Below, piece by piece: positions 10,777 to 31,519 of a DNA stretch of 32,000 nucleotides. The stretch is from Nitrososphaerota archaeon (lineage in GTDB: Archaea; Thermoproteota; Nitrososphaeria; Nitrososphaerales; Nitrosopumilaceae). Position numbers and translations under genes: made by a program. The notes below the pieces were generated by a model. It worked only from the letters and a program-made list of their open reading frames with translations. It did not search any database and had not been told where the DNA came from. The DNA lies in contig JABGTD010000061.1 of the NCBI GenBank assembly GCA_018647405.1, positions 26,570 through 58,569 of the forward strand. The letters are read 5' to 3'. Numbering within the stretch: position 1 is the first letter of the stretch; every line of letters begins with the position of its first letter.

Positions 10777-11781
10777 CTATAACCAGTGTGGTATTTCTAA
10801 GTAATTATCTAATTTTTCATTTTTGAGCATTTTCAATAATGCGTTTGCTTGTGGTGTTGATAACATTGGCTTATCAAATTCATTATCTGTCGAAATTCTT
10901 GGGCATGCAACTTGGATGAACGCATCAATTCCTGTAAAGTTTTTCAATCTATCACTAGTAATGTCTGTTAAAGCTAACAGTTGAACTTCTTTACCTCTTT
11001 CTTCCAATTCTTTTTTAAATTTTAAGGCTGTAACTTTTGCAAATTGACCTTCTTTTAGACCTACAATCACTCCAAAAACTTTTGCCTCTGTTGCTTTGAA
11101 AATTTTCAATGTAGCCTTTTTTTCTAATTTTTCTGCAAAGCTAGTAACGTCTCTTACTTCGTTAAAATAAGGATCTAAAATGTAAGTTGTTACTTTGGTT
11201 GATATTGCAACTCCTGCTGCATGAAAGTTACTTTGTCCTAAAAATAAATTTGCATCAACTTGTTCTTTAATTTCCATAGCCGGATAAAATTCACACCCAA
11301 AAACTTGTCCATCATTTAATTGTCCTTTACCTTTTCCAATTTTCACCATAATTCCTCCTTCTTCAAGTTTTTTCCTAACAGGCTCAACTTGGTGAAGATG
11401 TTGACTATCTGTAATTAATGAAATTGTTTTTCCTTTCAAAAGTTTAATCGCTTTTAGTATTACATCATCAAAAGGCACATCATCAAATGCATCAATCATC
11501 ATAACATTATCTTGTTCACCTGGAAATGTTTCAAGTTTGTTTGTGTGACCTATATTGAACAAAATTTCTGCACCCAACACTTTTGCACCATTTGAATTTA
11601 GATCACATGTTCCCCAGGTTGTATCTGCCAAAACAAATGCAGGAATATCAAATTTTTTTGTAATATTTATCGCAGTTTGCTGTACTTGTGGTAACATCCC
11701 ATCTGGAGCATTTAATGCAACAGTGACTGGTTTTCTTTGAGATATTATCTCGAAAATTCTCTTTTCATCAATTATTATCAT
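10777..11781 (-). CDS. dph2: diphthamide synthesis radical-SAM enzyme Dph2 (2-(3-amino-3-carboxypropyl)histidine synthase)
   Basis: VALNAPDGML, FVLADTTWGTCDL, LFNIGHT, and the later conserved Cys in QVACPRIS. Size and motif order as in archaeal Dph2. Confidence 0.8.
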   Translation of the reverse strand: MIIIDEKRIFEIISQRKPVTVALNAPDGMLPQVQQTAINITKKFDIPAFVLADTTWGTCDLNSNGAKVLGAEILFNIGHTNKLETFPGEQDNVMMIDAFDDVPFDDVILKAIKLLKGKTISLITDSQHLHQVEPVRKKLEEGGIMVKIGKGKGQLNDGQVFGCEFYPAMEIKEQVDANLFLGQSNFHAAGVAISTKVTTYILDPYFNEVRDVTSFAEKLEKKATLKIFKATEAKVFGVIVGLKEGQFAKVTALKFKKELEERGKEVQLLALTDITSDRLKNFTGIDAFIQVACPRISTDNEFDKPMLSTPQANALLKMLKNEKLDNYLEIPHWL

Positions 11782-11861: not shown

Positions 11862-13181
11862 ATGTCTAAACAGATACTCCATATTGGTATTGATGACACT
11901 GATTCACCTAAGGGCATGTGTACTACATTTTTAGCTTACAAAATTATTAATCGATTAAAAAAAGAAAATGTAGATTTTCTTGATTTTCCAAATTTGGTAA
12001 GATTTAATCCCAACATCCCTTGGAAAACTAGAGGTAATGGAGCTGTTGGAATTAAAATCTCTACTTCTAATCCTAAAAAAATTAAAAACCTAGTGAAAAA
12101 ATTTGTTAAACAATATTCTGATGTAAAAAATGGAGCAAATCCAGGTCTTGTTTTTTGCCAAGATGAAAATATCCCTGATGAATTTTTAAAGCTAAGTTCA
12201 GATGCAATGTGGAAATTGATTCATAGAAATGAGGCTAAAAAAATTCTTTCAAAATATAATCTTGATTTTTTTTATCTTGGAAATGGTCAAGGATTAGTTG
12301 GTGCTACTGGCGTAATAGGTTATATCTTTCAGGATGAAACATACGAACTACTTTCTTATCGTAAATCATCACAATTTGGAAAAAAACGAATCTTGGATAA
12401 ATCTAAGGTGAAAGAAATGCAAGAAAAAACATATCCGAATACATTCAATAGTTTTGATTCAAAGAAAAATAAAGTCCTGTTAATGCCTCATGGTCCTGAT
12501 CCTGTTTTTTATGGAGTTCGTGGAGAGGATTCAACAACATTAATTTCTGCATCAAAAATGATCCAACCAAAGGAGAAACTAGCTGGATATCTTATTTTTA
12601 AATCAAACCAAGGAACAGGTGATCATTTAAAAAATGAAATTGATGTAAATAATTTTTTACCTTATACATCTGGAACATTACGGGGTGTCATTATCACAAA
12701 ACCTATTGTCACTAAAGGTGGTCATGTATTTTTCTCAATAACTGTAAATAATATAAAAATTAATTGTGCAGTCTATAAACCAACACGAATAACTGATGTT
12801 GCAAAAGAGTTGATTGTTGGAGATATTATTAAAGTGGGAGGTGGTATTAGAAAAGCAACAAAAACACATCCAAGAATTTTAAATCTTGAATTCATTCAAA
12901 TTATAAAACTTGAAAAAAAATCTAAATTAATAAATCCATTTTGTAAATCTTGTCACAAACATATGAAATCAAAGGGTAAAAATCAAGGTTTTGAATGTGT
13001 AAAATGTAAAAAAACATCTAATCATAAAAATCGCCAATTTTTCACACGTTCGCTTAAAGAACAAATCTACATACCTGATGTTTCTGCACACCGTCACCTC
13101 ACAAAACCTGTTCAACGTATGAAACAAAACCCAAAATCTGAAAAATTTAATCCAAACTCTTCATGGATCACTAATTTTTAA
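11862..13181 (+). CDS. tiaS: tRNA(Ile2) 2-agmatinylcytidine synthetase TiaS
   Basis: N-terminal LHIGIDDTDSPKGMCTTFLAY is the TiaS (DUF1743) signature. OB-like middle region and C-terminal Cys cluster CKSC...CVKC. Confidence 0.8.
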   Translation: MSKQILHIGIDDTDSPKGMCTTFLAYKIINRLKKENVDFLDFPNLVRFNPNIPWKTRGNGAVGIKISTSNPKKIKNLVKKFVKQYSDVKNGANPGLVFCQDENIPDEFLKLSSDAMWKLIHRNEAKKILSKYNLDFFYLGNGQGLVGATGVIGYIFQDETYELLSYRKSSQFGKKRILDKSKVKEMQEKTYPNTFNSFDSKKNKVLLMPHGPDPVFYGVRGEDSTTLISASKMIQPKEKLAGYLIFKSNQGTGDHLKNEIDVNNFLPYTSGTLRGVIITKPIVTKGGHVFFSITVNNIKINCAVYKPTRITDVAKELIVGDIIKVGGGIRKATKTHPRILNLEFIQIIKLEKKSKLINPFCKSCHKHMKSKGKNQGFECVKCKKTSNHKNRQFFTRSLKEQIYIPDVSAHRHLTKPVQRMKQNPKSEKFNPNSSWITNF

Positions 13182-13189
13182 AATCATAA

Positions 13190-13264
13190 TAGCGGGGAGT
13201 AGATTTGAACTACTGATTTTCGGGTTATGAGCCCGACGGGATGACCTGACTTCCCCACCCCGCT
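13190..13264 (-). tRNA. tRNA-Met, anticodon CAT, most likely the archaeal initiator; no intron, CCA not encoded
   Basis: The reverse complement folds by hand into a cloverleaf: acceptor AGCGGGG/CCCCGCT, D stem GGGA/TCCC, anticodon stem TCGGG/CCCGA with loop CTCATAA, T stem AGTAG/CTACT with loop TTCAAAT, discriminator A. The A1:U72 pair and three G:C pairs closing the anticodon stem are initiator hallmarks. Confidence 0.9.
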
Positions 13265-16656: not shown

Positions 16657-17906
16657 TCAAGATATTACAGGTTAGTAATGTTGACAGTTTTGTAGAAACC
16701 AGACGTCAAAAAACCTCACAAAAAGATAGAAAAATTGTACAATCTATTTTAGATGATGTTAGAAAAAATGGTGATTCTGCTGTCAAAAAATACGAGCAAA
16801 AATTCAATGGTAAAAAAACAATACAATTACGTGTCAGTAAGCAAGACTCAAAAAATGCAAAAATTACTGATACAGAATTTGCTGCACTACAATTGTCAGC
16901 AATAAAACTATCAAAAACACAAAGAATTCTAAATAAAACATTACTTCAATCTGTTAAAAAAATTCCAAATGTTTCATTTGTTCCTATTTCAAGTGTTGGT
17001 TGTTACATACCTGGAGGTCAAGCTAGGTATCCAAGTTCAGCAATAATGTCTGTAATTACTGCTGCTGAAGCTGGAGTTAAGAGAATTGTAGTTGTTTCTC
17101 CTCCTGATTCTAATGGAAAAATTGATCCAATGACAATCACTGTTTCACACAATTGTGGTGCAGAAATTTACAAAGTAGGTGGAGCACAAGCAATTGCTGC
17201 ACTTGCATATGGGACAAAATCAATACCTAAAGTTGATAAAATTGTTGGACCTGGAGGAAAGTTTGTTAGTATTGCCAAGGCAATTGTCAGCGAAGAAACT
17301 TCAATTGATATGATTGCAGGACCAACTGAACTTGGAATTATAGTAGACTCAAGCACTGATCCTGAATTGGTGGCATATGATCTTGTATCACAAGCAGAAC
17401 ACAGCAATGATACAATGTGTTTTGTTATCACAACATCAAAATCTAAGGCAACACAAATTCAAAAATCACTTGAAAAATTAATTCCAAATGTAGAAAGAAG
17501 TTCTATTGTTAAACAAAGTATATCTAAAAATGGATTTATTGCAATTTGTAAAAATCAAAATGATGTAATTGAATTAGCAAATAAAATTGCACCTGAACAC
17601 ATGGAATTAATGGTTAAAGGTGCAAAAGCATTATCCAAAAAGATTACTGGTCCCGGTCTAGTCTTAATTGGAAATAATACTCCTTCATCAGCAAGTGATT
17701 ATCTCTTGGGTACAAATCACATACTTCCTACTAATGGATTTGGTAGAACTAGAGGTGGATTGTCTGTATTGGACTTTCTAAAATTACAAACTGTGGTTGA
17801 AACAAAAAAATCAGATCTTAATGAAATTTCTGATAACTTAAAAATACTTACTGATGCAGAAGGATTACCGAATCACTACAAAGCTGTAGAAAGGAGACTA
17901 AAATGA
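16653..17906 (+). CDS. hisD: histidinol dehydrogenase; apparent TTG start overlapping the hisG stop by 4 nt
   Basis: GGAQAIAALAYGT, VDKIVGPGGKFV, AGPTE, SQAEHS, APEHMEL and GTNHILPT. Confidence 0.93.
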   Translation: MIKILQVSNVDSFVETRRQKTSQKDRKIVQSILDDVRKNGDSAVKKYEQKFNGKKTIQLRVSKQDSKNAKITDTEFAALQLSAIKLSKTQRILNKTLLQSVKKIPNVSFVPISSVGCYIPGGQARYPSSAIMSVITAAEAGVKRIVVVSPPDSNGKIDPMTITVSHNCGAEIYKVGGAQAIAALAYGTKSIPKVDKIVGPGGKFVSIAKAIVSEETSIDMIAGPTELGIIVDSSTDPELVAYDLVSQAEHSNDTMCFVITTSKSKATQIQKSLEKLIPNVERSSIVKQSISKNGFIAICKNQNDVIELANKIAPEHMELMVKGAKALSKKITGPGLVLIGNNTPSSASDYLLGTNHILPTNGFGRTRGGLSVLDFLKLQTVVETKKSDLNEISDNLKILTDAEGLPNHYKAVERRLK

Positions 17907-18970
17907 ATAAAAAATTTGAAAAGAGATTAAATGAATTAGAAAAACTTTCTGGATATCAAAAACCAGCTAAAGTTGATGATGTATTGAAACTAGATTCAAA
18001 TGAAAATCTTGCAATCAAAAAAGAATTTCAAACAGAACTAATTCGTGAAGCTCAAAAACGAACTGACATTCGAACATATCCACTTGGTGGAGTTGAGAAT
18101 TTCATTAATTCACTTGCAAAATATCTCAAAGTACCAAAAAATATGATTTCAGTTGGCAACGGTTCTGATCAAATTCTTGATTTAATCTTAGCAAACCTCT
18201 GTACAAATTCAACTAAAGTTCTAACATCTGATCCTACATTTGGATTTTTTGAAGAAAGATGCAAACTTTATTCAATAAAACAAGTTAAAATTTCATTTTC
18301 AAAAAATATGGATTTACGTATTGAAGATTTCATCAAAAAAGCAAAATCTGTAGACATGATTTATCTTGATTCACCAAATAATCCAACCGGTTTCCAATTT
18401 TCTAATAAAGACTTGGAAAAGTTGATCAAATCTTTCTCAGGACCTATCATAATTGATGAGGCATATGGTGAATTCTCAAATTCATCTGTTCTTAGCTTGG
18501 TAAAAAAACACCCTAACATAATTTTAGTAAAAACACTATCCAAGGCTTTTGGATTGGCTGGATTACGTATTGGATATATGATTGCAGACAAAAAATTAAC
18601 TGAAGTTTTTTCAAATGTCATACAATATCCATATCCACTAAATACACTCGCTATTGAATGTGGGATTTTAGCAATAGAAAAATCAAAACAAATTATTTCA
18701 ATTTTTGAAGTTATCAAAAAACAAAGGTCAAGAATCATACAAAATCTAAAAAAATATGATGCTTTTGATGTCTTTGATTCTAATGCAAATTTTGTATTAT
18801 TTGATGCTAAAGGTGCTGATACTCGAGTGTATAATGCACTAATCGAACAAGGAATTTCTATTAGAAAACTTGGAAAATTGGCATCACACAAGGGATGTCT
18901 GCGTGTAACAATTGGAACTCCTGATATGAACTCTAAATTTTTACTAGCAATACGTGATCTTTTAGAATGA
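17903..18970 (+). CDS. hisC: histidinol-phosphate aminotransferase
   Basis: LDSNEN, YLDSPNNPTG, IIDEAYGEF and TLSKAFGLAGLRIGY (PLP lysine). ATGA overlap with hisD. Confidence 0.9.
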   Translation: MNKKFEKRLNELEKLSGYQKPAKVDDVLKLDSNENLAIKKEFQTELIREAQKRTDIRTYPLGGVENFINSLAKYLKVPKNMISVGNGSDQILDLILANLCTNSTKVLTSDPTFGFFEERCKLYSIKQVKISFSKNMDLRIEDFIKKAKSVDMIYLDSPNNPTGFQFSNKDLEKLIKSFSGPIIIDEAYGEFSNSSVLSLVKKHPNIILVKTLSKAFGLAGLRIGYMIADKKLTEVFSNVIQYPYPLNTLAIECGILAIEKSKQIISIFEVIKKQRSRIIQNLKKYDAFDVFDSNANFVLFDAKGADTRVYNALIEQGISIRKLGKLASHKGCLRVTIGTPDMNSKFLLAIRDLLE

Positions 18971-19929
18971 CTAAAGAAATTTACATTTCTGATGATATGA
19001 TTCAGAAAATACAAAAATTCGATTCAATAATTTTTGATTGCGATGGTGTTCTAGTAGATATTAGAAATTCATATGATTATGCTATTAACAAAACAATTTC
19101 TGCAATAATGAATGAACTATTTGATGATAAAATTTCTGATGTTGTAAATTCAAAAATATTATACGGTTTAAAGGCTTCTGGAGGTTTTAATGATGAAGTT
19201 GCAGTTGTCTATGCTGTTGTTATGACATTAGTTGCATCTAAAAAATCAAATTTGAAATTCAAAAAATTAATTATTGATGTAATTAATAATGCTAATGAAT
19301 CTGGAATAAATTCCATTGATAATTATTTTATTAATCAAAATATAGATTTGAAAGAAATTAAATTAAAATTAGATTATGAGAATTCTCGAAAAATAAGTTA
19401 CATACACAGAATTTTTAATCAATTATTTTATGGACCTAAACTCTATGAAGAAATCTTTAAAGAAAAATCTCAGTTTTCTGAAAAACCATTGATTGATTTA
19501 GATAATATTGTTTTAGATGATAATCTTATGTCTAAATTAAAAACTAGATTTGGAAATAAAATTTCTACTGTTACTGGCAGAGGAAATTTTGCATTTTCAT
19601 ACTCAATGAAAAATTATCTAGATAATTTTGATATGAAAAATTCTGTATTTCTAGAGGATCGTTCATTGGAACTAGCAAAACCTAATCCTGAATCTCTGAT
19701 AGAATCAATCTCTGGAATTAATTCTAAATGTTCATTATACATTGGTGATTCAATGGAGGATCTCATGATGGTTGAGAAATGCAAAGAACATGGTTATGAT
19801 GTATCATTTTGTGGGATTTATGGTTCTAGTGATGAACCAGAATTAAAATATGAATTATTTCAAAAAAATAAAGCATCATTTATTCTTGAATCAATACGGG
19901 AACTTCCGAAGGCATTAAATCTGGTATAA
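18967..19929 (+). CDS. HAD-superfamily phosphatase with large cap insertion; candidate histidinol-phosphate phosphatase
   Basis: HAD motif I FDCDGVLVD, motif II STVTGR, motif III AKPNP, motif IV GDSMEDL. About 170 aa lie between motifs I and II. ATGA overlap with hisC, and hisB follows after 21 nt. Confidence 0.8.
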   Translation: MTKEIYISDDMIQKIQKFDSIIFDCDGVLVDIRNSYDYAINKTISAIMNELFDDKISDVVNSKILYGLKASGGFNDEVAVVYAVVMTLVASKKSNLKFKKLIIDVINNANESGINSIDNYFINQNIDLKEIKLKLDYENSRKISYIHRIFNQLFYGPKLYEEIFKEKSQFSEKPLIDLDNIVLDDNLMSKLKTRFGNKISTVTGRGNFAFSYSMKNYLDNFDMKNSVFLEDRSLELAKPNPESLIESISGINSKCSLYIGDSMEDLMMVEKCKEHGYDVSFCGIYGSSDEPELKYELFQKNKASFILESIRELPKALNLV

Positions 19930-19950: not shown

Positions 19951-20538
19951 ATGAAACCTAGAAAAACAACTATCAAGCGGGAAACAAAGGAAACTAACGT
20001 TTCAGTTACCATTAATTTGGATGGAACTGGCAAAACCACAATCAATACAGGAATTAAATTTCTAGATCACTTGATTGGTTCTTTTGGAAAACATTCTATG
20101 ATGGATTTGATTGTTAAAGCAAAATCAAAAGATGGAATTGAACATCACTTGATTGAAGATACAGGAATAACAATTGGAAGTGCAATTGATAAAGCATTAG
20201 GAAATAGAAGTGGAATTACAAGATTCAGTTTTTCATCTGTACCTATGGATGAAGCTCTAGCTGAAACATCACTTGATCTAGTCAAAAGACAGTATCAAAA
20301 AATAACTCTCTTAACCAAAAGAACAAAGATTGAGGGTATCTCGAAAGAAGATTTAGAACACTTTTTCTTCTCTTTGGCACAAAATCTGAATTGTTGTATT
20401 CACGTTACTGTAAAGTATGGTGATAATGATCACCACAAAGTTGAAGCTGCTATAAAATCGATGGCTGTAGCAATACGTAATGCAGTATCTAATGATCCTA
20501 AACAAAAAGGCATACCAAGTACTAAAGGCGCAATGTAA
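19951..20538 (+). CDS. hisB: imidazoleglycerol-phosphate dehydratase (monofunctional)
   Basis: [46 protein letters not shown]. 195 aa, with no N-terminal phosphatase domain. Confidence 0.93.
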
Positions 20539-22663: not shown

Positions 22664-23206
22664 TTATGGAGCTGTTATATCAATCTCATATGCTACATTA
22701 CATGTTTCATATTGCCATTCATGATTTGGTAATGTATCTGCAAGCATTTCAAAATGTAATTTTGACATTTCATAACCTTTGAACACAACTGTCCATTCAC
22801 CTACTAGATCTTCTTTTTCACATAGATTTTTTCCTTTTAATAATTGTGGTTTAAAATATTTTTTTTGAGACTCTCTTTCATTTCCATTAAATCCCCACTC
22901 GTTATAAATTATATTTCCAGGCGTTATGAATAAAATTGACCCTTGATCACCTGGTCTCAAATTTTTTAAAATTACATAGACATTTTCTCCTAGCAGATAC
23001 TTGTCTTTGTTAATTTGTAATGGGCCCAAAATTTGAGGATTATCAGGATATACAACTCCTGCTACACGTCCACCTTTTTCATAATATTCTTCAACAGAAA
23101 CTTGTTCCCACATAGTTTCATTAATTTGAAAAATTATGACTCCAATAATTACTGCAATACCTATCCCTGTTGCAATTCCGACATTTTTATTCATGAGTTT
23201 CACCAA
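22664..23206 (-). CDS. hypothetical protein with N-terminal membrane anchor
   Basis: N-terminus MNKNVGIATGIGIAVIIGVIIF, then a soluble ~150-aa domain. No family recognised. Confidence 0.5.
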   Translation of the reverse strand: MVKLMNKNVGIATGIGIAVIIGVIIFQINETMWEQVSVEEYYEKGGRVAGVVYPDNPQILGPLQINKDKYLLGENVYVILKNLRPGDQGSILFITPGNIIYNEWGFNGNERESQKKYFKPQLLKGKNLCEKEDLVGEWTVVFKGYEMSKLHFEMLADTLPNHEWQYETCNVAYEIDITAP

Positions 23207-23382
23207 TTTTTTAATTCTATAAAACTTTCTTATCAGAAATCTCTGTTAATTTTTCCAATTTTTGAACAAATTTCATTTTATTTTCATTCAAAATACATTT
23301 TTTTCTTTATTTTAGTTTAAATCAAAAATTTATTATTAATTATCATTCTAATTCTAGACAATAAAATTAAGTAATACTTAAT

Positions 23383-23392
23383 CTAATATTAG
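23383..23392. promoter_or_regulatory. perfect 10-bp palindrome CTAATATTAG just upstream of the putative TATA box of the thrC-like gene
   Basis: Self-complementary by inspection. It lies in the 221-bp AT-rich intergenic region. Confidence 0.3.
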
Positions 23393-23415
23393 GATATTTT
23401 ATGAATCAATTCTAA

Positions 23416-23425
23416 TCTGATCAGA
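23416..23425. promoter_or_regulatory. perfect 10-bp palindrome TCTGATCAGA between the putative TATA box (TATTTTAT, 23395-23402) and the ATG at 23428
   Basis: Self-complementary by inspection. It overlaps the predicted transcription start, the usual position of an archaeal repressor operator. Confidence 0.3.
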
Positions 23426-23427
23426 AT

Positions 23428-24642
23428 ATGGGTAAAAATCATCTTGAATGTAGAGAATGTAAGAAAGAGTATGAGCCTACTTTCAAGTATATTTGTGATG
23501 AGTGTTTTGGCCCATTAGATGTGAAATATGATTTTCCATCTGTGAATAAAAATACGTTCAAAGATAGAGAACAAACATACTGGCGTTATTTTGAATTATT
23601 GCCAATATCTGATAAAAACAATATTGTTAGTATTGAAGCTGGAATGACTCCGCTTGTAAAAGCAGAAAAACTTGGAAAAGAATTAGGACTAAACAATCTT
23701 TACATAAAAAATGATTCTGTAAATCCAACATTTTCATTTAAAGACAGACCAGCAGGTGTTGCGATATCAAAAGCAAAAGAATTTGGTTTAGAATCTGTTG
23801 GATGTGCTTCTACTGGTAATCTGGCATCTGCAACTGCCGCACATGCTGCCAAAGCAAACATGCCATGTTATATTTTTGCACCAAGTAACATTGAAACTGC
23901 AAAAATCGCTCAAGCATTATCATATGGTGCTGAATACATTTCTGTTGATGGTACATACGATGAAGCAAATAGAATTGCAGCACAAATTGGTGATAGAAAG
24001 GGAGTCGGTGTAGTAAATATCAATATGCGCTCATACTATGTCGAAGGTTCTAAAACTTTAGCTTATGAAGTTGCAGAACAATTGGATTGGAATGTTCCAA
24101 ATCATCTAATAGTCCCTACTGGAAGTGGTGCTATGTTAAATGCAATTTGTAAAGGATTTGAAGAATTACAAAGTGTTTCATTACTTGACGATCTTTCATC
24201 AATGCACATGCATTGTGCACAACCACATGGATGTGCCCCAATAGTTGATGCATTTGATAAAAATTCTGATAAGGTAATTCCAGTAGAACAACCAGATACG
24301 GTTGCAAAAAGTTTAGCAATTGGTGATCCTGGTGATGGTCGTTATGTTTTAAAAAGATTGAAACAATACAATGGAATTGCAAAAGAAACAAATGATAAAG
24401 AAATTTTAGATGCAATTTTACTTTTAGCAAAAACAGAAGGAATATTCACGGAACCTGCTGGTGGTGTATCTATTTCTGTTTTGAAAAAAATGGTTGAAGA
24501 AGGAAAAATTGACAAAGATGAAACTACTGTTTGTTATGTGACCGGTAATGGTTTGAAAGCTACTGAATCAATTATGACTGTATTGAAAAAACCACAGGTA
24601 ATGCAAGCTGATGTTGCAAAAATCTCAGCAGTAATAGGATGA
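23428..24642 (+). CDS. thrC: threonine synthase family PLP enzyme (ThrC or ThrC-like) with N-terminal four-Cys zinc ribbon
   Basis: CRECKKEY...CDECFG ribbon (about 23449-23505), PLP-lysine motif PTFSFKDRPA, ASTGNLA, and VPTGSGAMLNA glycine loop. 404 aa. Confidence 0.85.
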   Translation: MGKNHLECRECKKEYEPTFKYICDECFGPLDVKYDFPSVNKNTFKDREQTYWRYFELLPISDKNNIVSIEAGMTPLVKAEKLGKELGLNNLYIKNDSVNPTFSFKDRPAGVAISKAKEFGLESVGCASTGNLASATAAHAAKANMPCYIFAPSNIETAKIAQALSYGAEYISVDGTYDEANRIAAQIGDRKGVGVVNINMRSYYVEGSKTLAYEVAEQLDWNVPNHLIVPTGSGAMLNAICKGFEELQSVSLLDDLSSMHMHCAQPHGCAPIVDAFDKNSDKVIPVEQPDTVAKSLAIGDPGDGRYVLKRLKQYNGIAKETNDKEILDAILLLAKTEGIFTEPAGGVSISVLKKMVEEGKIDKDETTVCYVTGNGLKATESIMTVLKKPQVMQADVAKISAVIG

Positions 24643-24649
24643 TTGTATA

Positions 24650-25981
24650 ATGACCAAAATTACCTTTACAATTCCATCTGTTCTAAATGCAGGTGGTGGT
24701 GAAAAGAAAACTGAACTTGAAGCATCAACTCTTAAGGAATCTTTTGCAAAAATCTCCGAAATTATGGGTGATGACTTTAAGAGAAAAGTTTTGGAAGCCG
24801 ATGGTTCTCCACGTTCTCTAATCAATATTTACATCAATGGAAAAAATGCTGCATTTGATAGTGGTCTTGATACTCCATTAAATGAAAATGATGATGTTTA
24901 CATTTTACCTGCAGTAGCAGGTGGTTCAGATTTATCTGAAAAAGAATTAGATAGATTTTCACGTCAAGTCATGTTAGAACAAATTGGATATGATGGACAA
25001 TTAAAATTAAAAAATTCTAAAGTTTGTGTTGTTGGTGTTGGTGGTTTAGGAAATCCAATTACAACTAGACTAGCTACAATGGGTATTGGTAAATTAAGAA
25101 TTGTTGATAGAGATGTAATTGAATTATCAAACTTGCATAGACAAACAATGTTTGATGAAAATGATGTTGGTCAAGTTAAAGTTGAGGTTGCACAAAAGAA
25201 ATTAAAAAAATTAAATCCTGAAGTAGAAATAGAAGCATTACCAATTTCTATTAATGATTATAATGCTGCAGATGTTATTGATGGATGTGATGTTGTAATT
25301 GATGCACTTGATAGTGTCAATGCACGTTATGCATTAAACAAAGCATGTGTAGAAAAAAACATTCCATTTGTAACTGGTGCTGCAGTTGGTGTTACAGGAC
25401 AAGTTTTTACAGTTTTACCAAAAGAAACTGCATGTTATTATTGCATGTTTCCTGCATTAGATGAAGATGCAATGCCAACATGTAGTATACAAGGTGTACA
25501 CCCTCCAATACTTTCTATTGTTGGTGGACTAGAGGTGTATGAAGCTGTTAATGTTTTAATTGGCAAAAAACCAAAGTCTTCAGAAAAATTCATATCCATT
25601 GATTTAGAGAACTTGGAATTTTCATCTGTTAAAACTTTCAAACAAGATGCTTGTTCTGTTTGTGGTTCTGGCAAAAAAATTGAAACTCCAAAACAAGAAT
25701 TAATTTTAGAAGAGTTATGTGGCAGAAACATGGGAAAACGTACATTTTCAATTACTCCTACATACGAAGTAAATTTGAATGTGAAAGACGTAACTACTGT
25801 GGCTAAAGAAAAAGGATTCACAGTTGAGAATCAGGGGGACTTAGGATTATCTATGCGAACAAATGATCTTTCAGTGAATTTCATGAAGAAAGGTTCTGCA
25901 GTAGTTGTTGGTCCAGATAATGAAGAAGCAGCAATTACTCTTTACAAGAGTCTTTTAGGCACGAAATCAGTTAGTGCATAG
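24650..25981 (+). CDS. fusion protein: MoaD/ThiS-type ubiquitin-like beta-grasp domain (aa 1-92, ends AVAGG), E1-like MoeB/ThiF/UbaA adenylyltransferase (aa ~100-340), unassigned C-terminal ~100-aa domain
   Basis: The Ubl C-terminus NENDDVYILPAVAGG matches the MoaD DGDEV..PPVSGG pattern. E1 motifs are FSRQ, VVGVGGLGNP, IVDRDVIELSNLHRQ, Zn tetrad CYYC (C262/C265) plus CSVC (C335/C338), and candidate catalytic Cys in PTCSIQGV. The start is 7 nt after the thrC-like stop. Confidence 0.8.
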   Translation: MTKITFTIPSVLNAGGGEKKTELEASTLKESFAKISEIMGDDFKRKVLEADGSPRSLINIYINGKNAAFDSGLDTPLNENDDVYILPAVAGGSDLSEKELDRFSRQVMLEQIGYDGQLKLKNSKVCVVGVGGLGNPITTRLATMGIGKLRIVDRDVIELSNLHRQTMFDENDVGQVKVEVAQKKLKKLNPEVEIEALPISINDYNAADVIDGCDVVIDALDSVNARYALNKACVEKNIPFVTGAAVGVTGQVFTVLPKETACYYCMFPALDEDAMPTCSIQGVHPPILSIVGGLEVYEAVNVLIGKKPKSSEKFISIDLENLEFSSVKTFKQDACSVCGSGKKIETPKQELILEELCGRNMGKRTFSITPTYEVNLNVKDVTTVAKEKGFTVENQGDLGLSMRTNDLSVNFMKKGSAVVVGPDNEEAAITLYKSLLGTKSVSA

Positions 25982-26179: not shown

Positions 26180-29100
26180 ATGAATAAAGAATTAGGACGA
26201 AAAATAACTAGTCTAACCTTAATGACTATTATGCTAGCAGGTGGAGTTAGCTTCGCTGTTCCTGGTGTTATGCCAGAAGCAGAGGCAGCTAACCAATACT
26301 TGTGGGTATCAGCAGAAGACGCCGGTGGAAATAATTTCTACGGCGGTCAGGTTTTAGAAATCGTAGTTTCTGATCCAGCTATTAATAGACTGGATGAGGC
26401 ATACGGTATGCCTGACGTTACAATTGACGGTAAGAAAGTTATCATGGCACAAGGTGTTGACGGTTCTTGGTATGCATACATTGCTGATGGCAAGAGTGCA
26501 ACCGGAATTGACAGCAACTATCCAGAAGTTGAAGATGGAAAAGGAGCAGATTATGGTCGCTTCTGTAAAGCAGATACAAACTTAGAGTTTGGACCAAATG
26601 ATGCATTTGTATCACAACTGATTCCTTCGGAATCACGTGGTGTTGCACTTCCTCACCAACTGGGTAACACAACAATTCCAGGTACCTCCTCATCAGGACC
26701 ACATACATACATTGGTTCAGCTACACAAAGTAGTTACACCCAAGGTACAGGTATCACACAAAAATGTGATAACGATGTTGAAGGATCATCCGCAAACGGA
26801 ATTGAAGGTGCACCTGGTATCTGGCTAAATGCATCTGCACAACTTGCACACACTGGTAAACTTGCAACAGGTGTTAACGCATCTGATCAAGCTATCAACA
26901 ATGTTGTAAGAGAAGCAAGAGCATTATCCAATGGTACAACTACTGATTACTATGGTAACATTGCCTTAGGTCCAAACCTATGGCCATTTATCCAATTGTA
27001 CGACTTCACACGATATCAATCATATGACTTAGTTTACGAACGAGGCGGAAATGACGAAACAATTGCTTTGTCTTTTGACAGACCAGGCGCTACAAACGGC
27101 GGCGGACTATCATTTGATAAAGATCACTATGGTTTAACTCATGAAATCGGTGTAACAATCGGCAACAATGAAATGAACATAGACCCAACTGACGAAGACA
27201 GTTGGACTTTCGGCACACTTCCAACAAACGCAACCACATTCTATCAACTATTTGATGAAAACGGTGCAATGGATGCATCAGCAACAGCAGGTGCAATTAA
27301 ATTCACTGCAGGTACACAGCCATTCGGCTTTGATACCGGTGTTCTTCAAATCGATAGAAATGGTCCTGAAGATGCAACAAACAATGTTTTGATGTTCCAG
27401 GACAATGGTGATCAAGTAGTAGCATGTAGCAGTGGAACCTGTGCAACAAGTAACATTAGCACAGCAAGCCAAGCAGTTACATTTACTGAAACCGGTGCAA
27501 ACACTGGTATTTTCACCAATTGGGATGACGCTTTGAAAACAAACATGTACGTTAACGCAGCAGCAGACAGAGGTACACAAGCCACATTCAAGTGGGATGA
27601 TGTAGAATTCTCTGTTCTTTACATGCCTTTCTGGGGAACAATTGCATTCAATACTGATGGCTCCGACGGTGCAACCACCGGCGCAGCAATTGGTGCAGAA
27701 TGGAACTCTGGAGAAATTGTAGAAATTGTATTAGACGATAACGACATGAACCTCGACGCACGAAGTCAAGAGCAAATGACAGTTGGTTCAAATACCACAA
27801 TCGTACCAGCAGTAAAGATTGGTTCACCAATCACACTATCTACACTAGATACATTGACATATCTTGATGAGACCGGAACAAATGCAATTACATTTGACGA
27901 GAACATCAATGATACACAATGTAGTAGTGATTATGGTTCAGCAGGAACTGCTGCATCATATGTCTCCTGTTATGAAAAATACAGTGAGAGAGCAATAGTG
28001 ACTTCTAGTACAAGTGCTATTACAGTTGCAGACAATGATCAATTGAGATTTGTCTTCAACGGTACAACTGTCGGTGATCTTAAAGATTTGATATCCGGTG
28101 CTAACGGTACAGCAGCTTACACTTACATCCAATACGATTTCCGTTCACTTAACGGCGGTGGAAATGATGTAAACTATTACTTGAACTTCACCATTGGTGA
28201 TGATTCAATTAACAGTTGTACAGCAAACAGTGCAACATCCTATACAAATGGACATTGTTCTGAAGCAAGATTTAACACCGGTCTTATTGGTCAAACACTA
28301 ATTAATGATCCAAGCGACACCCTAAAGGGACTGGGCAGCTCAAGCACTAACGCTTTAACTGACTCACAAGCTTTGAGAATTACAGTGCAAATGAACAGCA
28401 TTAGCGGTTCATTTGATGAAACACTAAGCGCAGGTACCTCATACCCATTAACTATGGATGTTGTAACATTCGGTCAATCAAATGACGGTGTTGCATCTTC
28501 TGATAGACACAACAACGCAATCTATAGATTGGAAGTTGATGAAGTTGACGCCAACGGAGGAATCTTCGTAGGTGAATTAGATTTCATCATGCTCAATCAA
28601 TTGAACGTTAACCAAACTTCCACATACAATAATACTAAGACAGATCACGAAGAAAACAGAATCATTGTTCACAATGACTTAACTGATGAAGACGAGATCC
28701 GAATTAATTATTTAGATATGGGAGCTGACGGCGTTGAGACACAAGTAGCAGACCAATTAGCAGCACCAACACACTCAGGTGTAGTTGAATTTGACAATGA
28801 CAGTTACAAAGAAGCAGACACTGTAGTCATAACATTAACTGACTCAGACCTAAACACTAACCCAGATATCATCAATATTTACACTGTTGTAAACACTGGT
28901 GGTGATTATGCAGAAGACATGGTTGGTAAATCCAGTTACGGAAAGAATTCCGTTGGAGATGCCAATGGTCGAATGCTAGACATTACCTTTGATGACGAAA
29001 TATGGTTAGAATCAAGTTCCACTAACAATACTACTACTTGTAGTACTGCAACAACTGGAACTGATGGTTTAGCAGAATCTGGATTTACTTTAGTAGAGAC

Positions 29101-31519
29101 CGGTAGAGATACTGGTGTCTTCACAGGTGACTTCCAGGTTCCAGCAGAGTATTGTGCACGTTCCTCAGGAACAGGTACAACAACCTCAACCATGGGTACT
29201 GATATTGAAGTTAATTATGTAGATTACAGAGACGCATCTGGAGAAATCATCGAAGTAGGTGATGGCGCAGGAATTAGAGGCAATACTGGATCAGTTAGCT
29301 TAGACAGAACAGTCTATCCAGTTCCATTCGGAACTGTAGCTGACTTTGCAGCAGAAACCTCAAAGAGTACACCTAACGGTAGATCTCTATTCCCAATCCA
29401 TGCTGATGGAATCAGTACACTTGATAGTGATTCTGAAACACTCGGCAGTGGTGACTTGACCATACACATTCGTGTAGATGACCCAGATTACGACGTATCA
29501 GCAACAGGTGAAGACCAAATTGCAGAGAATACAACAACAACCTCTAACCGTGGACCTCTAAAGATCTACGTTTCAAGAGGATCTGATGCTGTAGTACTCG
29601 CAACTGCAGGTGGTGATACCGCACAAAATGGTAAAATCACTACAGATGGTAATTCAGTCGTTGACGGCGGTGCCGTAAACGGTACTGTTGAACTTGGCCC
29701 AATCTTAGAGACTGCTCCAGATTCTGGAGTATTCGAACTTGACATGACAGTCAGATATACTGACGGTCCTGCAAGCACAGATTGTTCTTCCAAGACTGAC
29801 AATTGGACACCTCTAAACGGTGACTCCAATATCACTGATACTTCTGCTAACAACGCTGAACTAACTAGATTCGATGCGGTCGCAACCTCTGGTGATTATT
29901 GTCTCTTACAAGGAGATGTACTCACAGTAGAGTATACTGACCAAAACGATGCATCTGGTAACTCAGCAGTAGCTTACGATTCAGCAACATTTGACTTAAG
30001 AAACGGTGTAATTCAAACAGACAAATCTGTCTACATCATTGGAAGTGATATTATCATGACCTTGATTGAACCAGATCTTGACTTAGAATCTGATGAATCA
30101 GAAACATGGGACCTCGATTTAATCGAATGGGACTCTGACGCATTTACCAACACAATGGGTAATGCAGGCGGAGCCGCAGCATCCTTTGATCCTGAACCAT
30201 CTGACTTTAGAGAAACAGGTGACTCTACTGGAATCTTCCAGATTGTTATCGAAACCCCAGCAACACTTGGCGGTACTTCTCTAGACAGAGGTGAACTCAT
30301 CGATCTTGAATACACAGATTGGGCCCCAGCTGGCGCCAATTATGTTGGTGAAGAGTATACAGACATAGGACTTTCAATCTACACATCTAACTTCGGTGCA
30401 ACTATCGAAATGGACCAAAAAGTATACACATGGACTGATAAAATCTATGTAACTATTGTCGCTCCAGATCACAACTTTGACAGCGGACTCGTTGATCAAA
30501 TTGGTGATACTGATGACGACCCATTAATCGTACAAACCAGATCCCAGAAACTCACTGGCTACAAACTAGCAGAGACTGGAACTGATACAGGCATCTTCAG
30601 TGGTGAAGTTATCCTCAAAGGATTCTCACATGACGCTGATGGTGACCCATCAACTGGTACAAGCGGTTATGATGTTACAGGAATTTCATCTGCAAGTGGA
30701 TCAGGACCAACCGATGGTGCAATTAAAGCCGAAGATGATGACGGAGTTACAATTTCATACGAGTTTAACGAGGATGAAGTTGTAGTAGGCTCTGCATTAA
30801 TCAGATGGAACGTAGGTGAAGTTCAATGGCTTGAATCAAGCTATCCTGCAGGCGGTAATGGTGTAGTAAGAGTAGTCGACCCAGATATGAACTGGGATCC
30901 AGAAAATGTAGATAACTTCTCAATCGACGTCTGGTCAGATTCTGACGCAGGCGGTATTTCCTTAATGATCACTGAGACAAATGAGGCAACTGGAATATTC
31001 GAAGGAACTGTATCATTTACAGCTGACGACGAATCATCCGGACACAGACTCAGAGTCGCAGAAGGTGACACAATCACCGCAGAATATGAGGATAATACAC
31101 TTCCAGATCCATATACTAGAAGCGATGACCTCGATATCACTGGCACAGCCATAATCGGCACAATCGTACCTCCTCTTGAGCGCGCTCCAGCAGCAAACGC
31201 AAGAGTAGTTGATTCATTCGGTAACTCCATGAGTGAGGTATCAGTAGATCAACAAGTACAGATTGAAGCAGACTTGGTAAACGGTCAGGATAGAGATCAA
31301 TCATTCGCATACTTAGTACAGGTTCAGGATGGCGATGGAGTAACTGTCTCACTAGCATGGATTACAGGTCAACTGGCTGCTGGACAATCATTTAGCCCAG
31401 CACTGTCATGGATTCCAACTTCCTCTGGTTCATACGAAGCAACAGTCTTTGTATGGGAGAGCGTAGATAATCCATCTGCTCTATCTGATACAGTATCAGT
31501 AAGCATCCGAGTCGTATAA
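26180..31519 (+). CDS. giant acidic secreted surface protein, probable S-layer (glyco)protein built of repeated Ig-like modules with a CARDB-like C-terminal domain
   Basis: 1779 aa. Signal peptide MNKELGRKITSLTLMTIMLAGGVSFAVPGVMPEAEA. At least six recurrences of the module motif ETGxxTGxF (TETGANTGIF, VETGRDTGVF, ETAPDSGVF, RETGDSTGIF, AETGTDTGIF, TETNEATGIF), each followed by a ..Y.D strand. Large excess of D/E over K/R, many N-x-S/T sequons, no C-terminal membrane anchor. Strong TATA box and oligo-T terminator. Confidence 0.7.
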   Translation: MNKELGRKITSLTLMTIMLAGGVSFAVPGVMPEAEAANQYLWVSAEDAGGNNFYGGQVLEIVVSDPAINRLDEAYGMPDVTIDGKKVIMAQGVDGSWYAYIADGKSATGIDSNYPEVEDGKGADYGRFCKADTNLEFGPNDAFVSQLIPSESRGVALPHQLGNTTIPGTSSSGPHTYIGSATQSSYTQGTGITQKCDNDVEGSSANGIEGAPGIWLNASAQLAHTGKLATGVNASDQAINNVVREARALSNGTTTDYYGNIALGPNLWPFIQLYDFTRYQSYDLVYERGGNDETIALSFDRPGATNGGGLSFDKDHYGLTHEIGVTIGNNEMNIDPTDEDSWTFGTLPTNATTFYQLFDENGAMDASATAGAIKFTAGTQPFGFDTGVLQIDRNGPEDATNNVLMFQDNGDQVVACSSGTCATSNISTASQAVTFTETGANTGIFTNWDDALKTNMYVNAAADRGTQATFKWDDVEFSVLYMPFWGTIAFNTDGSDGATTGAAIGAEWNSGEIVEIVLDDNDMNLDARSQEQMTVGSNTTIVPAVKIGSPITLSTLDTLTYLDETGTNAITFDENINDTQCSSDYGSAGTAASYVSCYEKYSERAIVTSSTSAITVADNDQLRFVFNGTTVGDLKDLISGANGTAAYTYIQYDFRSLNGGGNDVNYYLNFTIGDDSINSCTANSATSYTNGHCSEARFNTGLIGQTLINDPSDTLKGLGSSSTNALTDSQALRITVQMNSISGSFDETLSAGTSYPLTMDVVTFGQSNDGVASSDRHNNAIYRLEVDEVDANGGIFVGELDFIMLNQLNVNQTSTYNNTKTDHEENRIIVHNDLTDEDEIRINYLDMGADGVETQVADQLAAPTHSGVVEFDNDSYKEADTVVITLTDSDLNTNPDIINIYTVVNTGGDYAEDMVGKSSYGKNSVGDANGRMLDITFDDEIWLESSSTNNTTTCSTATTGTDGLAESGFTLVETGRDTGVFTGDFQVPAEYCARSSGTGTTTSTMGTDIEVNYVDYRDASGEIIEVGDGAGIRGNTGSVSLDRTVYPVPFGTVADFAAETSKSTPNGRSLFPIHADGISTLDSDSETLGSGDLTIHIRVDDPDYDVSATGEDQIAENTTTTSNRGPLKIYVSRGSDAVVLATAGGDTAQNGKITTDGNSVVDGGAVNGTVELGPILETAPDSGVFELDMTVRYTDGPASTDCSSKTDNWTPLNGDSNITDTSANNAELTRFDAVATSGDYCLLQGDVLTVEYTDQNDASGNSAVAYDSATFDLRNGVIQTDKSVYIIGSDIIMTLIEPDLDLESDESETWDLDLIEWDSDAFTNTMGNAGGAAASFDPEPSDFRETGDSTGIFQIVIETPATLGGTSLDRGELIDLEYTDWAPAGANYVGEEYTDIGLSIYTSNFGATIEMDQKVYTWTDKIYVTIVAPDHNFDSGLVDQIGDTDDDPLIVQTRSQKLTGYKLAETGTDTGIFSGEVILKGFSHDADGDPSTGTSGYDVTGISSASGSGPTDGAIKAEDDDGVTISYEFNEDEVVVGSALIRWNVGEVQWLESSYPAGGNGVVRVVDPDMNWDPENVDNFSIDVWSDSDAGGISLMITETNEATGIFEGTVSFTADDESSGHRLRVAEGDTITAEYEDNTLPDPYTRSDDLDITGTAIIGTIVPPLERAPAANARVVDSFGNSMSEVSVDQQVQIEADLVNGQDRDQSFAYLVQVQDGDGVTVSLAWITGQLAAGQSFSPALSWIPTSSGSYEATVFVWESVDNPSALSDTVSVSIRVV

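Follow-up and report, generated by a model that had tools for sequence, protein, structure and literature searches.

A two-gene operon in a 32,000-nucleotide stretch of the genome of a Nitrososphaerota archaeon of the family Nitrosopumilaceae (contig JABGTD010000061.1 of assembly GCA_018647405.1, positions 26,570 to 58,569; the whole stretch is called the window here, and positions refer to it unless another locus is named) probably encodes a homocysteine synthase system of the MetM/MetO type, in which sulfur would be supplied as a carrier-protein thiocarboxylate and the MetO orthologue would be translated in one chain with the E1 that activates it, at the N-terminus of that enzyme. The first gene, open reading frame (ORF) A (23428..24642, + strand), encodes a 404-residue pyridoxal phosphate (PLP) enzyme of the threonine synthase (ThrC) family that is MetM-like, or M-type (Pfam PALP, E = 3.4e-72). 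After a 7-nt spacer at the predicted operon junction (24643..24649, +), ORF B (24650..25981, +) encodes a 443-residue fusion protein in three parts: a ubiquitin-like (Ubl) domain, an E1 domain and a C-terminal domain. The two genes are co-oriented and lie exactly where the first-pass annotation had placed them, and its description of a ThrC-family enzyme with a Cys4 ribbon, followed after 7 nt by a Ubl and an E1 in one protein, agrees with the coordinates and the domain matches. They are real genes and not chance ORFs, because the exact 443-residue protein recurs in public assemblies: it is indexed in 139 blocks, and gene order is identical in the six places shown.

In our alignments the PLP enzyme is not a canonical ThrC but a member of a distinct M-type clade. 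We searched 1.84 billion cluster representatives for homologues and aligned the best 150 (50%-identity representatives) with five solved ThrCs. The closest solved relatives of ORF A are the threonine synthases 6cgq, 2zsj, 1uim and 2d1f, and it matches PDB ThrCs at about 220 bits (phmmer, PDB sequence set). ORF A and about 45 of the 150 representatives form an M-type group with the motifs NPT[FHN]SFKDR[VP], CASTGNLA and VN(I/V)N(L/M)R(P/S)YY(A/V)EGSKT, the last including a four-residue insertion, whereas all five solved ThrCs and many ribbon-bearing homologues have NPTGSFKDRG, CASTGNTS and VNPxRxEGQKT. The M-type proteins are one clade by neighbour-joining on a fast alignment, in a comparison made without the characterised MetM and MetO sequences of Streptomyces albulus. 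Over 100 bootstraps (numpy neighbour-joining, with the M-type class assigned by regular expression), the motif-defined set was recovered exactly in 13, with at most two taxa misplaced in 92 and with at most four in all 100. Of the 24 positions that separate canonical from bacterial M-type proteins, 16 in ORF A carry the residue state of the M type and 4 that of canonical ThrCs. ORF A thus groups with ThrC paralogues controlled by riboswitches for S-adenosylmethionine (SAM), apart from all structurally characterised ThrCs.

Four canonical motifs (NPTGSFKDRG, STGNTS, N-S-x-N-P-x-R and NPxSW) are all altered in ORF A. Its PLP-lysine motif SFKDR (23734..23748, +; K105) lies inside NPTFSFKDRP where canonical ThrCs have NPTGSFKDRG, and S103, K105, D106 and R107 are invariant in an alignment of 26 family sequences (alignment A1). 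In the STGNLA loop (residues 128-133; 23809..23826, +; STGNTS in canonical ThrCs) the specificity positions are changed from T to L at 132 and from S to A at 133. The M-type signature VNINMRSYYVEGSKT (24013..24057, +) contains the four-residue insertion, and an arginine is relocated within it, the canonical N201/R204 pair becoming R201/Y204, with Tyr204 in place of the canonical Arg and Arg201 new. The tryptophan of NPxSW is lost. We take the N201/R204 motif to be the substrate-phosphate loop, an assignment made from the Thermus enzyme; the signature of this loop in ORF A is fully M-type.

The bacterial members of the clade are tied to methionine by their riboswitches. A SAM-I element (RF00162, 69.2 bits) lies directly 5' of the M-type gene of Micromonospora coriariae, a locus that we reached through a Micromonosporaceae cluster representative, and SAM-I elements (75.8 and 76.5 bits) also lie upstream of two Chloroflexota M-type genes whose products are 49-50% identical to ORF A. 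SAM-I elements repress genes at high SAM. Because such control suits a methionine gene and not thrC (a threonine synthase, which competes for O-phosphohomoserine, would need the reverse), these bacterial clade members are best seen as methionine genes of the MetM type. The S. albulus metM gene has a SAM riboswitch as well, and a Microcystis thrC gene that stands beside a metO-like gene encodes a protein 51.6% identical to S. albulus MetM (PMC12172450). The cyanobacterial loci that we retrieved have the same arrangement of enzyme and metO-like gene as Microcystis, and Nostoc has two copies of the enzyme, an M-type one 48% identical to ORF A and a separate canonical one 35% identical. The first-pass annotation had referred to a MetM/MetO system in Streptomyces, correctly: the discovery is credited to Hasebe et al. 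2024 where it is cited in bioRxiv 10.1101/2024.10.14.618325 and PMC12172450.

To see how widely the enzyme and the carrier are paired, we used the M-type alignment to scan GTDB at one genome for each species, with R[PSA][YF]YxEG[SAG]KT as the retrieval pattern for the family. The 80 best loci were returned, 78 of them with downstream sequence, and these were queried by tblastn with the window's Ubl, E1 and C-terminal domains. The gene immediately 3' of that for the M-type enzyme encodes a Ubl homologue in 73 of the 78 informative loci, in at least eight lineages that comprise both archaea (Nitrosopumilales, Nitrosotalea, Nitrososphaerales, Nitrosocaldus and Bathyarchaeia) and bacteria (Chloroflexota, Cyanobacteria, Nitrospirota and Syntrophaceae). 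The pair is conserved in all four ammonia-oxidiser orders sampled. Flanking genes, where we compared them, vary from locus to locus. When the profile of the fused Ubl is compared with that of the free bacterial carriers, they match end to end over 89 columns (hhalign probability 99.7%, E = 4e-27). Because the downstream position is conserved and the profiles match over their whole length, we regard the fused Ubl as an orthologue of the MetO-type carrier. With the M-type clade and the SAM riboswitches, this conserved pairing supports the suggestion made in the first pass that O-phosphohomoserine is converted to homocysteine in a MetM/MetO-like manner. In other ammonia oxidisers the two genes are mostly separated by about 2 to 50 nt; where they seem to overlap, in two cases, this is a start-codon artefact. 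Longer gaps (150-600 nt) occur in the Chloroflexota loci L039, L041, L055, L066, L068, L070 and L086 and in several cyanobacterial loci.

Outside the ammonia oxidisers the carrier is a separate protein. Chloroflexota, Cyanobacteria, Nitrospirota and Syntrophaceae have a free Ubl of 90-97 residues ending ...(I/V)PA(V/I)AGG, with a stop codon usually directly after GG and sometimes after 1-6 extra residues. The gene order in Bathyarchaeia is enzyme, free Ubl (ending GG-stop) and an E1 with the same C-terminal domain as ORF B, and in a metagenome-assembled genome (MAG) of a non-ammonia-oxidising member of the Nitrososphaerota the Ubl is also a free gene ending GG-stop. In 21 loci from Nitrosopumilales, Nitrosotalea and Nitrososphaerales, Ubl and E1 are one ORF with the pattern AVAGG-(S/A/G)-linker-RYSRQ. 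AVAGG is invariant in all 21 while the linker after it varies from 6 to 18 residues, and for this reason it resembles a processing site. Among the loci compared, the fusion occurs only in ammonia-oxidising archaea and is, on this distribution, a late event; it arose inside the lineage of the ammonia oxidisers when two adjacent genes lost the stop and start codons that separated them. In a MAG of Ca. Nitrosocaldus schleperae (L029, 11221-12674), Ubl and E1 are separate ORFs in different frames that overlap by 10 nt, and the 113-residue Ubl extends 15 residues beyond GG. Either the fusion is at an intermediate stage here or the assembly contains a frameshift error.

Some bacterial loci carry a fuller gene set. 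In three Nitrospirota/Syntrophaceae loci, E1 and JAB protease genes complete the cluster, with the JAB gene beside the E1 gene. As separate observations, enzyme and Ubl are bracketed by two different E1 genes in three Nitrospirota loci (L069 7700-11692, L074 9158-12541 and L082 7726-11854), two of which (L069 and L082) have a JAB protease gene 3' of the downstream E1. In a Syntrophaceae MAG (L080, 11270-11785) the Ubl runs past GG (AIAGGSFLKRR...) into a 171-residue ORF, making another carrier fusion; downstream of it come E1 and JAB protease genes and a weak match to PALP.

The three parts of ORF B can be delimited closely. Residues 1-92 (24650..24925, +) are the MetO-like Ubl, a beta-grasp domain of the MoaD/ThiS type that ends ILPAVAGG; Pfam ThiS matches residues 19-92 (E = 6e-8), and the AlphaFold 2 (AF2) model has a beta-grasp-like pattern of strands and helices in this region. 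The diglycine is internal, and a single residue, S93, joins it to the native E1 N-terminus. G91, G92 and S93, all three invariant in 24 close homologues, make up a predicted processing site (24920..24928, +) at which cleavage would fall after Gly92. Residues 94-339 (24929..25666, +) are an E1 adenylyltransferase of the MoeB/ThiF type with no rhodanese domain. Pfam ThiF matches residues 103-336 (E = 3e-75), and from residue 94 onwards the sequence aligns to residues 3-248 of E. coli MoeB (E = 1.7e-48); the GxGxxG motif (GVGGLG, 129-134), the zinc pairs C262/C265 and C335/C338, and Cys278 are all invariant. Residues 346-443, with the stop codon (25685..25981, +), are a C-terminal alpha/beta domain of about 100 amino acids, the 'TBP-like' domain of Makarova & Koonin. 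NF009123 (PRK12475) matches end to end over residues 101-437 of ORF B, the AF2 model has secondary structure at 351-436, and tblastn finds this domain in archaeal loci only. The AF2 model of the fusion, of moderate confidence (pLDDT 68.6), confirms the E1 fold, for which the best Foldseek matches are MoeB and ThiF, and leaves residues 88-111 disordered; its cis geometry and its C-terminal domain are unreliable. ORF B scores below the cut-offs of four models for characterised proteins: MoeZ (NF005902) 149.6 against 647, MoeB (TIGR02355) 188 against 376.6, UbaA (NF047750) 202.7 against 450, and SAMP1 (NF041918) 37.6 for the whole protein or 40.6 for the Ubl alone, against 60.

The first-pass annotation presented the fused architecture as unfamiliar, which needs correction: Ubl-E1-TBP was described by Makarova & Koonin in 2010 (PMC2948915), and the fusion appears as 'MoaD-MoeB' in PMC11237513. 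The neighbourhood table of PMC2948915 lists the 404- and 443-residue pair in Nitrosopumilus maritimus and a ThrC(404)-Ubl(88)-E1(267) operon in Archaeoglobus fulgidus, although its text never mentions threonine synthase and discusses neither operon. We found no place in the searchable literature where the Ubl-E1 fusion is linked to a ThrC-like gene or to methionine. New here, as far as gene content can tell, would be a MetM/MetO-type system with a carrier-E1 polyprotein and an E1 that lacks rhodanese.

We propose the following mechanism. The Ubl-E1 polyprotein would be cut after Gly92, probably by a JAB/MPN+ metalloprotease encoded elsewhere in the genome, to give a free ...AVAGG carboxylate. 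The E1 would adenylate this carboxylate and, by the usual chemistry of its family, convert it to a thiocarboxylate with sulfur from sulfide or a persulfide; because the E1 has no rhodanese domain, the sulfur donor would have to act in trans. By homology with MetM, the PLP enzyme would eliminate phosphate from O-phospho-L-homoserine and accept the carrier thiocarboxylate at C-gamma, where ThrC adds water. Hydrolysis of the carrier-homocysteine adduct, the step that Mec performs in the systems of CysO and MetO, would then release homocysteine for MetE or MetH. Cleavages like the first step have precedents, HvJAMM1 being reported to cut the SAMP1-MoaE linkage (PMC4443979) and DR0402 a MoaD-MoaE fusion (Yang et al. 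2018, as cited in PMC11237513). Table S1 of PMC2948915 gives the inventory of related genes for N. maritimus and Cenarchaeum symbiosum: one E1 of the MoeB/ThiF family (arCOG01676), which is the present fusion; no ThiS-family or Urm1-family protein; two MoaD-family domains, namely the present Ubl and a Cgi121 fusion; one NcsA-type PP-loop ATPase; two JAB proteases elsewhere in the genome; and none of MoaA, MoaB, MoaC, MoaE, MoeA and MobA. Alternative jobs for the single E1 are therefore scarce in these two species.

The nearest characterised system is MetM/MetO of S. albulus, which works with MoeZ and Mec. There, as here, a ThrC-family enzyme of the same clade is encoded directly 5' of a MoaD/ThiS-type carrier that ends in GG, and thiocarboxylation requires an E1. 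The archaeal system differs in that its carrier is fused to the E1 N-terminus, so that a cleavage step is required; its E1 ends in the 'TBP-like' domain instead of a rhodanese; and its operon, known here from sequence alone, has no Mec/JAB gene. It also has no riboswitch, unlike the bacterial members of the clade. The CysO/CysM/MoeZ/Mec system of Mycobacterium tuberculosis resembles our proposal in that an O-phospho-amino acid gives a PLP-bound intermediate, a carrier thiocarboxylate charged by an E1 attacks it, and the product amino acid is freed by a JAB protease; it differs in that CysM belongs to the cysteine synthase family and not to ThrC, and it makes cysteine from O-phosphoserine. In the HcyS/HcyF/HcyD/MetY system of Wolinella succinogenes a carrier thiocarboxylate feeds homocysteine synthesis, and the carrier is made with an extension after GG that a JAB protease has to remove. 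This system differs in using a MetY-type sulfhydrylase and O-acetylhomoserine, and only one residue follows GG there, compared to an entire E1 here. In ThiS-ThiF, MoaD-MoaE and SAMP1-MoaE fusions, as here, the Ubl is encoded 5' of the partner enzyme and the GG is internal, and release by a protease has been shown or proposed, but the pathways (thiazole and molybdopterin) are different. ThiS-ThiF fusions are found in thiamin operons of delta/epsilon-proteobacteria and Firmicutes that also encode a second, free ThiS (PMC1779556). Canonical ThrCs (TIGR00260; 6cgq, 2zsj, 1uim and 2d1f) share with ORF A the fold, the PLP lysine and, probably, the substrate O-phosphohomoserine; ORF A departs from them in its clade, its altered motifs and its pairing with a carrier.

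Several points weigh against the homocysteine synthase assignment. Unlike MoeZ, the E1 carries no rhodanese domain, the internal diglycine means that the primary product needs processing before it can be adenylated, and no ORF with a JAMM motif is present in the window or in any of the archaeal loci. For the archaeal proteins, we infer the enzyme's activity, the carrier thiocarboxylate and the cleavage product throughout. The tree is a neighbour-joining tree, not a maximum likelihood one, and the connection to S. albulus is anchored by the riboswitches and by an identity percentage quoted in another paper. ORF A also exceeds the cut-offs of the NCBI equivalog models for thrC (TIGR00260, 291.8 bits against 167.1; NF006050, 310.1 against 303). 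The riboswitch-linked MetM-type proteins exceed TIGR00260 too, as did every M-type protein tested. Because M-type and canonical proteins both pass, TIGR00260 and NF006050 fail to separate the two types, and we rejected NCBIfam, which has no MetM model, as a discriminator. Finally, a Microcystis MetM homologue gave some threonine in vitro (PMC12172450), and if the ammonia oxidisers have no other ThrC, their M-type enzyme must also make threonine.

This last point leads to the alternative that survives best, although we think it unlikely: the M-type enzyme could be the only ThrC-family enzyme of the ammonia-oxidising archaea and have two functions, yielding threonine with water and homocysteine with the Ubl-thiocarboxylate, and the split between threonine and methionine would then be set by the supply of processed, charged carrier. 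Besides the in vitro threonine synthase activity of the Microcystis protein and the passing thrC scores, the canonical state at 4 of the 24 discriminating positions in ammonia oxidisers is consistent with this. So is the lack of a second ThrC in the window, in about 10 kb upstream and at roughly 25 thaumarchaeal loci, but these cover only a few per cent of any genome. No second thrC of ammonia oxidisers surfaced in literature searches, the cluster names of 30 representatives included no thaumarchaeal canonical ThrC, and a search seeded with a protein whose amino-acid composition is like that of the window's proteins (P0222) returned only MAGs of heterotroph-like, non-ammonia-oxidising Nitrososphaeria. 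Against dual function, the phosphate-loop signature of ORF A is fully of the M type, and Nostoc carries both types of ThrC, as, we presume, A. fulgidus may too. An extension of the idea, which we consider doubtful, is that the enzyme is a sole-ThrC branch-point enzyme whose switch is the cutting of the carrier away from its E1 by a protease, a step like the processing of a ubiquitin precursor that would act as a metabolic valve in an organism where the single E1 has no other known use.

It is improbable that ORF A is an ordinary threonine synthase lying by accident beside an unrelated housekeeping Ubl-E1 that serves tRNA 2-thiolation (with NcsA), SAMP-like conjugation, or both. All databases name the enzyme threonine synthase, the best NCBIfam matches of the Ubl are SAMP1 and archaeal MoaD, and N. 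maritimus and C. symbiosum have this protein as their sole E1 together with one NcsA-type ATPase (PMC2948915 Table S1). An accidental adjacency is hard to square with pairing in 73 of 78 loci from Archaea and Bacteria amid differing flanking genes, or with clade members that stand behind SAM riboswitches, and the SAMP1 and UbaA scores are far below their cut-offs. The released Ubl may have an extra role in tRNA thiolation or protein conjugation, which would add to a main function in homocysteine synthesis and not replace it.

Slightly less probable still is that the fused Ubl is never released and acts in cis as a regulatory or pseudo-substrate domain of the E1, the PLP enzyme taking its sulfur from free sulfide or another donor. 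The operon contains no protease gene, and one residue only separates GG from the E1 N-terminus. A strict AVAGG followed by a linker of variable length is, however, the pattern of a cleavage site and not of a structural hinge; free orthologues ending in GG exist in sister lineages; and JAMM proteases such as HvJAMM1 and DR0402 are reported to cut linear Ubl fusions. A MoaD-MoeB fusion for molybdenum cofactor biosynthesis, as PMC11237513 (which treats the fusion under cofactor biosynthesis) and some database names have it, is very improbable: the domains do belong to the MoaD and MoeB superfamilies, but the Ubl is homologous to the carriers encoded 3' of M-type ThrC genes, the E1 is below the MoeB cut-off, and the label is unlikely because N. 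maritimus and C. symbiosum lack the six molybdenum cofactor genes counted in PMC2948915 Table S1.

Ammonia-oxidising archaea are among the most abundant microbes of ocean and soil and grow without added amino acids. We found no description of their homocysteine route in the searchable literature. If the MetM/MetO assignment is true, the operon explains how sulfur enters methionine in some of the ocean's most abundant microbes and gives a concrete, testable sulfur pathway to methionine and SAM for ammonia oxidisers. It would also change the interpretation of a widespread fusion, listed as 'MoaD-MoeB' for molybdopterin synthesis in 61 of 98 Thaumarchaeota (PMC11237513), in a group whose members N. 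maritimus and C. symbiosum have no genes for making the molybdenum cofactor. The genes are currently annotated as a threonine synthase and a molybdopterin or thiamin enzyme; the error would be systematic, and the predictions can be tested directly. Because the thrC models merge MetM-type proteins with ThrC, metabolic reconstructions of Cyanobacteria, Chloroflexota, Nitrospirota and Archaea would be affected. The carrier-E1 polyprotein would, moreover, be a simple prokaryotic example of a Ubl fusion precursor that needs a cut after GG, like eukaryotic ubiquitin.

The enzyme also has an N-terminal Cys4 zinc ribbon, CRECKKEYEPTFKYICDEC (23449..23505, +; C8-x2-C11-x11-C23-x2-C26), of which C8 and C23 never vary in alignment A1 and C11 and C26 hardly do. 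We considered the ribbon as a marker of MetM and rejected it, as most of the 150 representatives have one, proteins with canonical motifs among them. Some of these ribbon-bearing canonical ThrCs are fused to a LeuA allosteric/dimerisation domain (about 610-627 residues; NC10 and Peregrinibacteria; P0148, P0150, P0157, P0162, P0165 and others) and some to a PadR winged-helix domain (about 480-500 residues; P0140, P0175, P0176 and P0178), which suggests inbuilt amino-acid feedback or DNA binding.

The operon is preceded by an AT-rich intergenic region (23207..23427, +) that on inspection of the sequence we presume to contain its promoter. A scan of the whole window at Rfam gathering thresholds found no riboswitch or other Rfam element 5' of the operon; the only match in the window is a tRNA gene (13190-13264, - strand, 65.2 bits), which lies near tiaS (tRNA-Ile2 agmatidine synthetase) and a diphthamide synthase gene, the ordinary housekeeping genes beside it being at 11862-13181 (+) and 10777-11781 (-). 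Within the window we found neither a JAB protease nor a rhodanese, and no second PALP enzyme or methionine gene either. G+C content is low, about 0.28-0.34 in the gene-dense part. The names that databases give to near-identical proteins point to marine Nitrosopumilaceae close to Ca. Nitrosopelagicus. On the 5' side is a histidine operon (hisG, D, C, a HAD hydrolase gene, hisB, H, A, F). The HAD-family hydrolase (320 residues, 18967-19929, +), between hisC (17903-18970) and hisB (19951-20538), matches known families only weakly (TIGR01548, 51.5 bits where the cut-off is 140) and is a candidate histidinol-phosphate phosphatase (hisN); the hisN step is the commonest unexplained gap among prototrophs (GapMind 2026). 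Also on this side, an ORF divergent from the two-gene operon (22664-23206, -) encodes a protein of 180 residues that is hydrophobic near its N-terminus and matches no family. Close relatives have this ORF in the corresponding place, which in C. symbiosum and N. maritimus is occupied by an arCOG08828 gene.

On the 3' side, ORF B is followed by 198 AT-rich nt and then by a gene for a protein of 1779 residues with no Pfam match (26180-31519, +). The protein is rich in Thr, Ser, Gly and Asp, and the G+C content of its gene is about 0.40-0.41, compared to about 0.28-0.34 elsewhere in the window. A fragment of the gene in a neighbouring strain has a faint SlaA-like match, and the protein may be an S-layer or surface protein. 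The gene appears to be hypervariable, because the exact sequences of its neighbours are on record and its own is not. On a related contig (L089, 294-1367), about 9 kb 5' of the window start, lies asd, the gene for aspartate-semialdehyde dehydrogenase. The 10 kb upstream of the window contain asd and cobalamin genes and no ThrC, the latter genes forming a cobalamin-biosynthesis block (CobD/CbiB, CobS and CbiA-like) in the same region of L089. The product of asd supplies the homoserine precursor, and the cobalamin genes supply the cofactor for a cobalamin-dependent methionine synthase.

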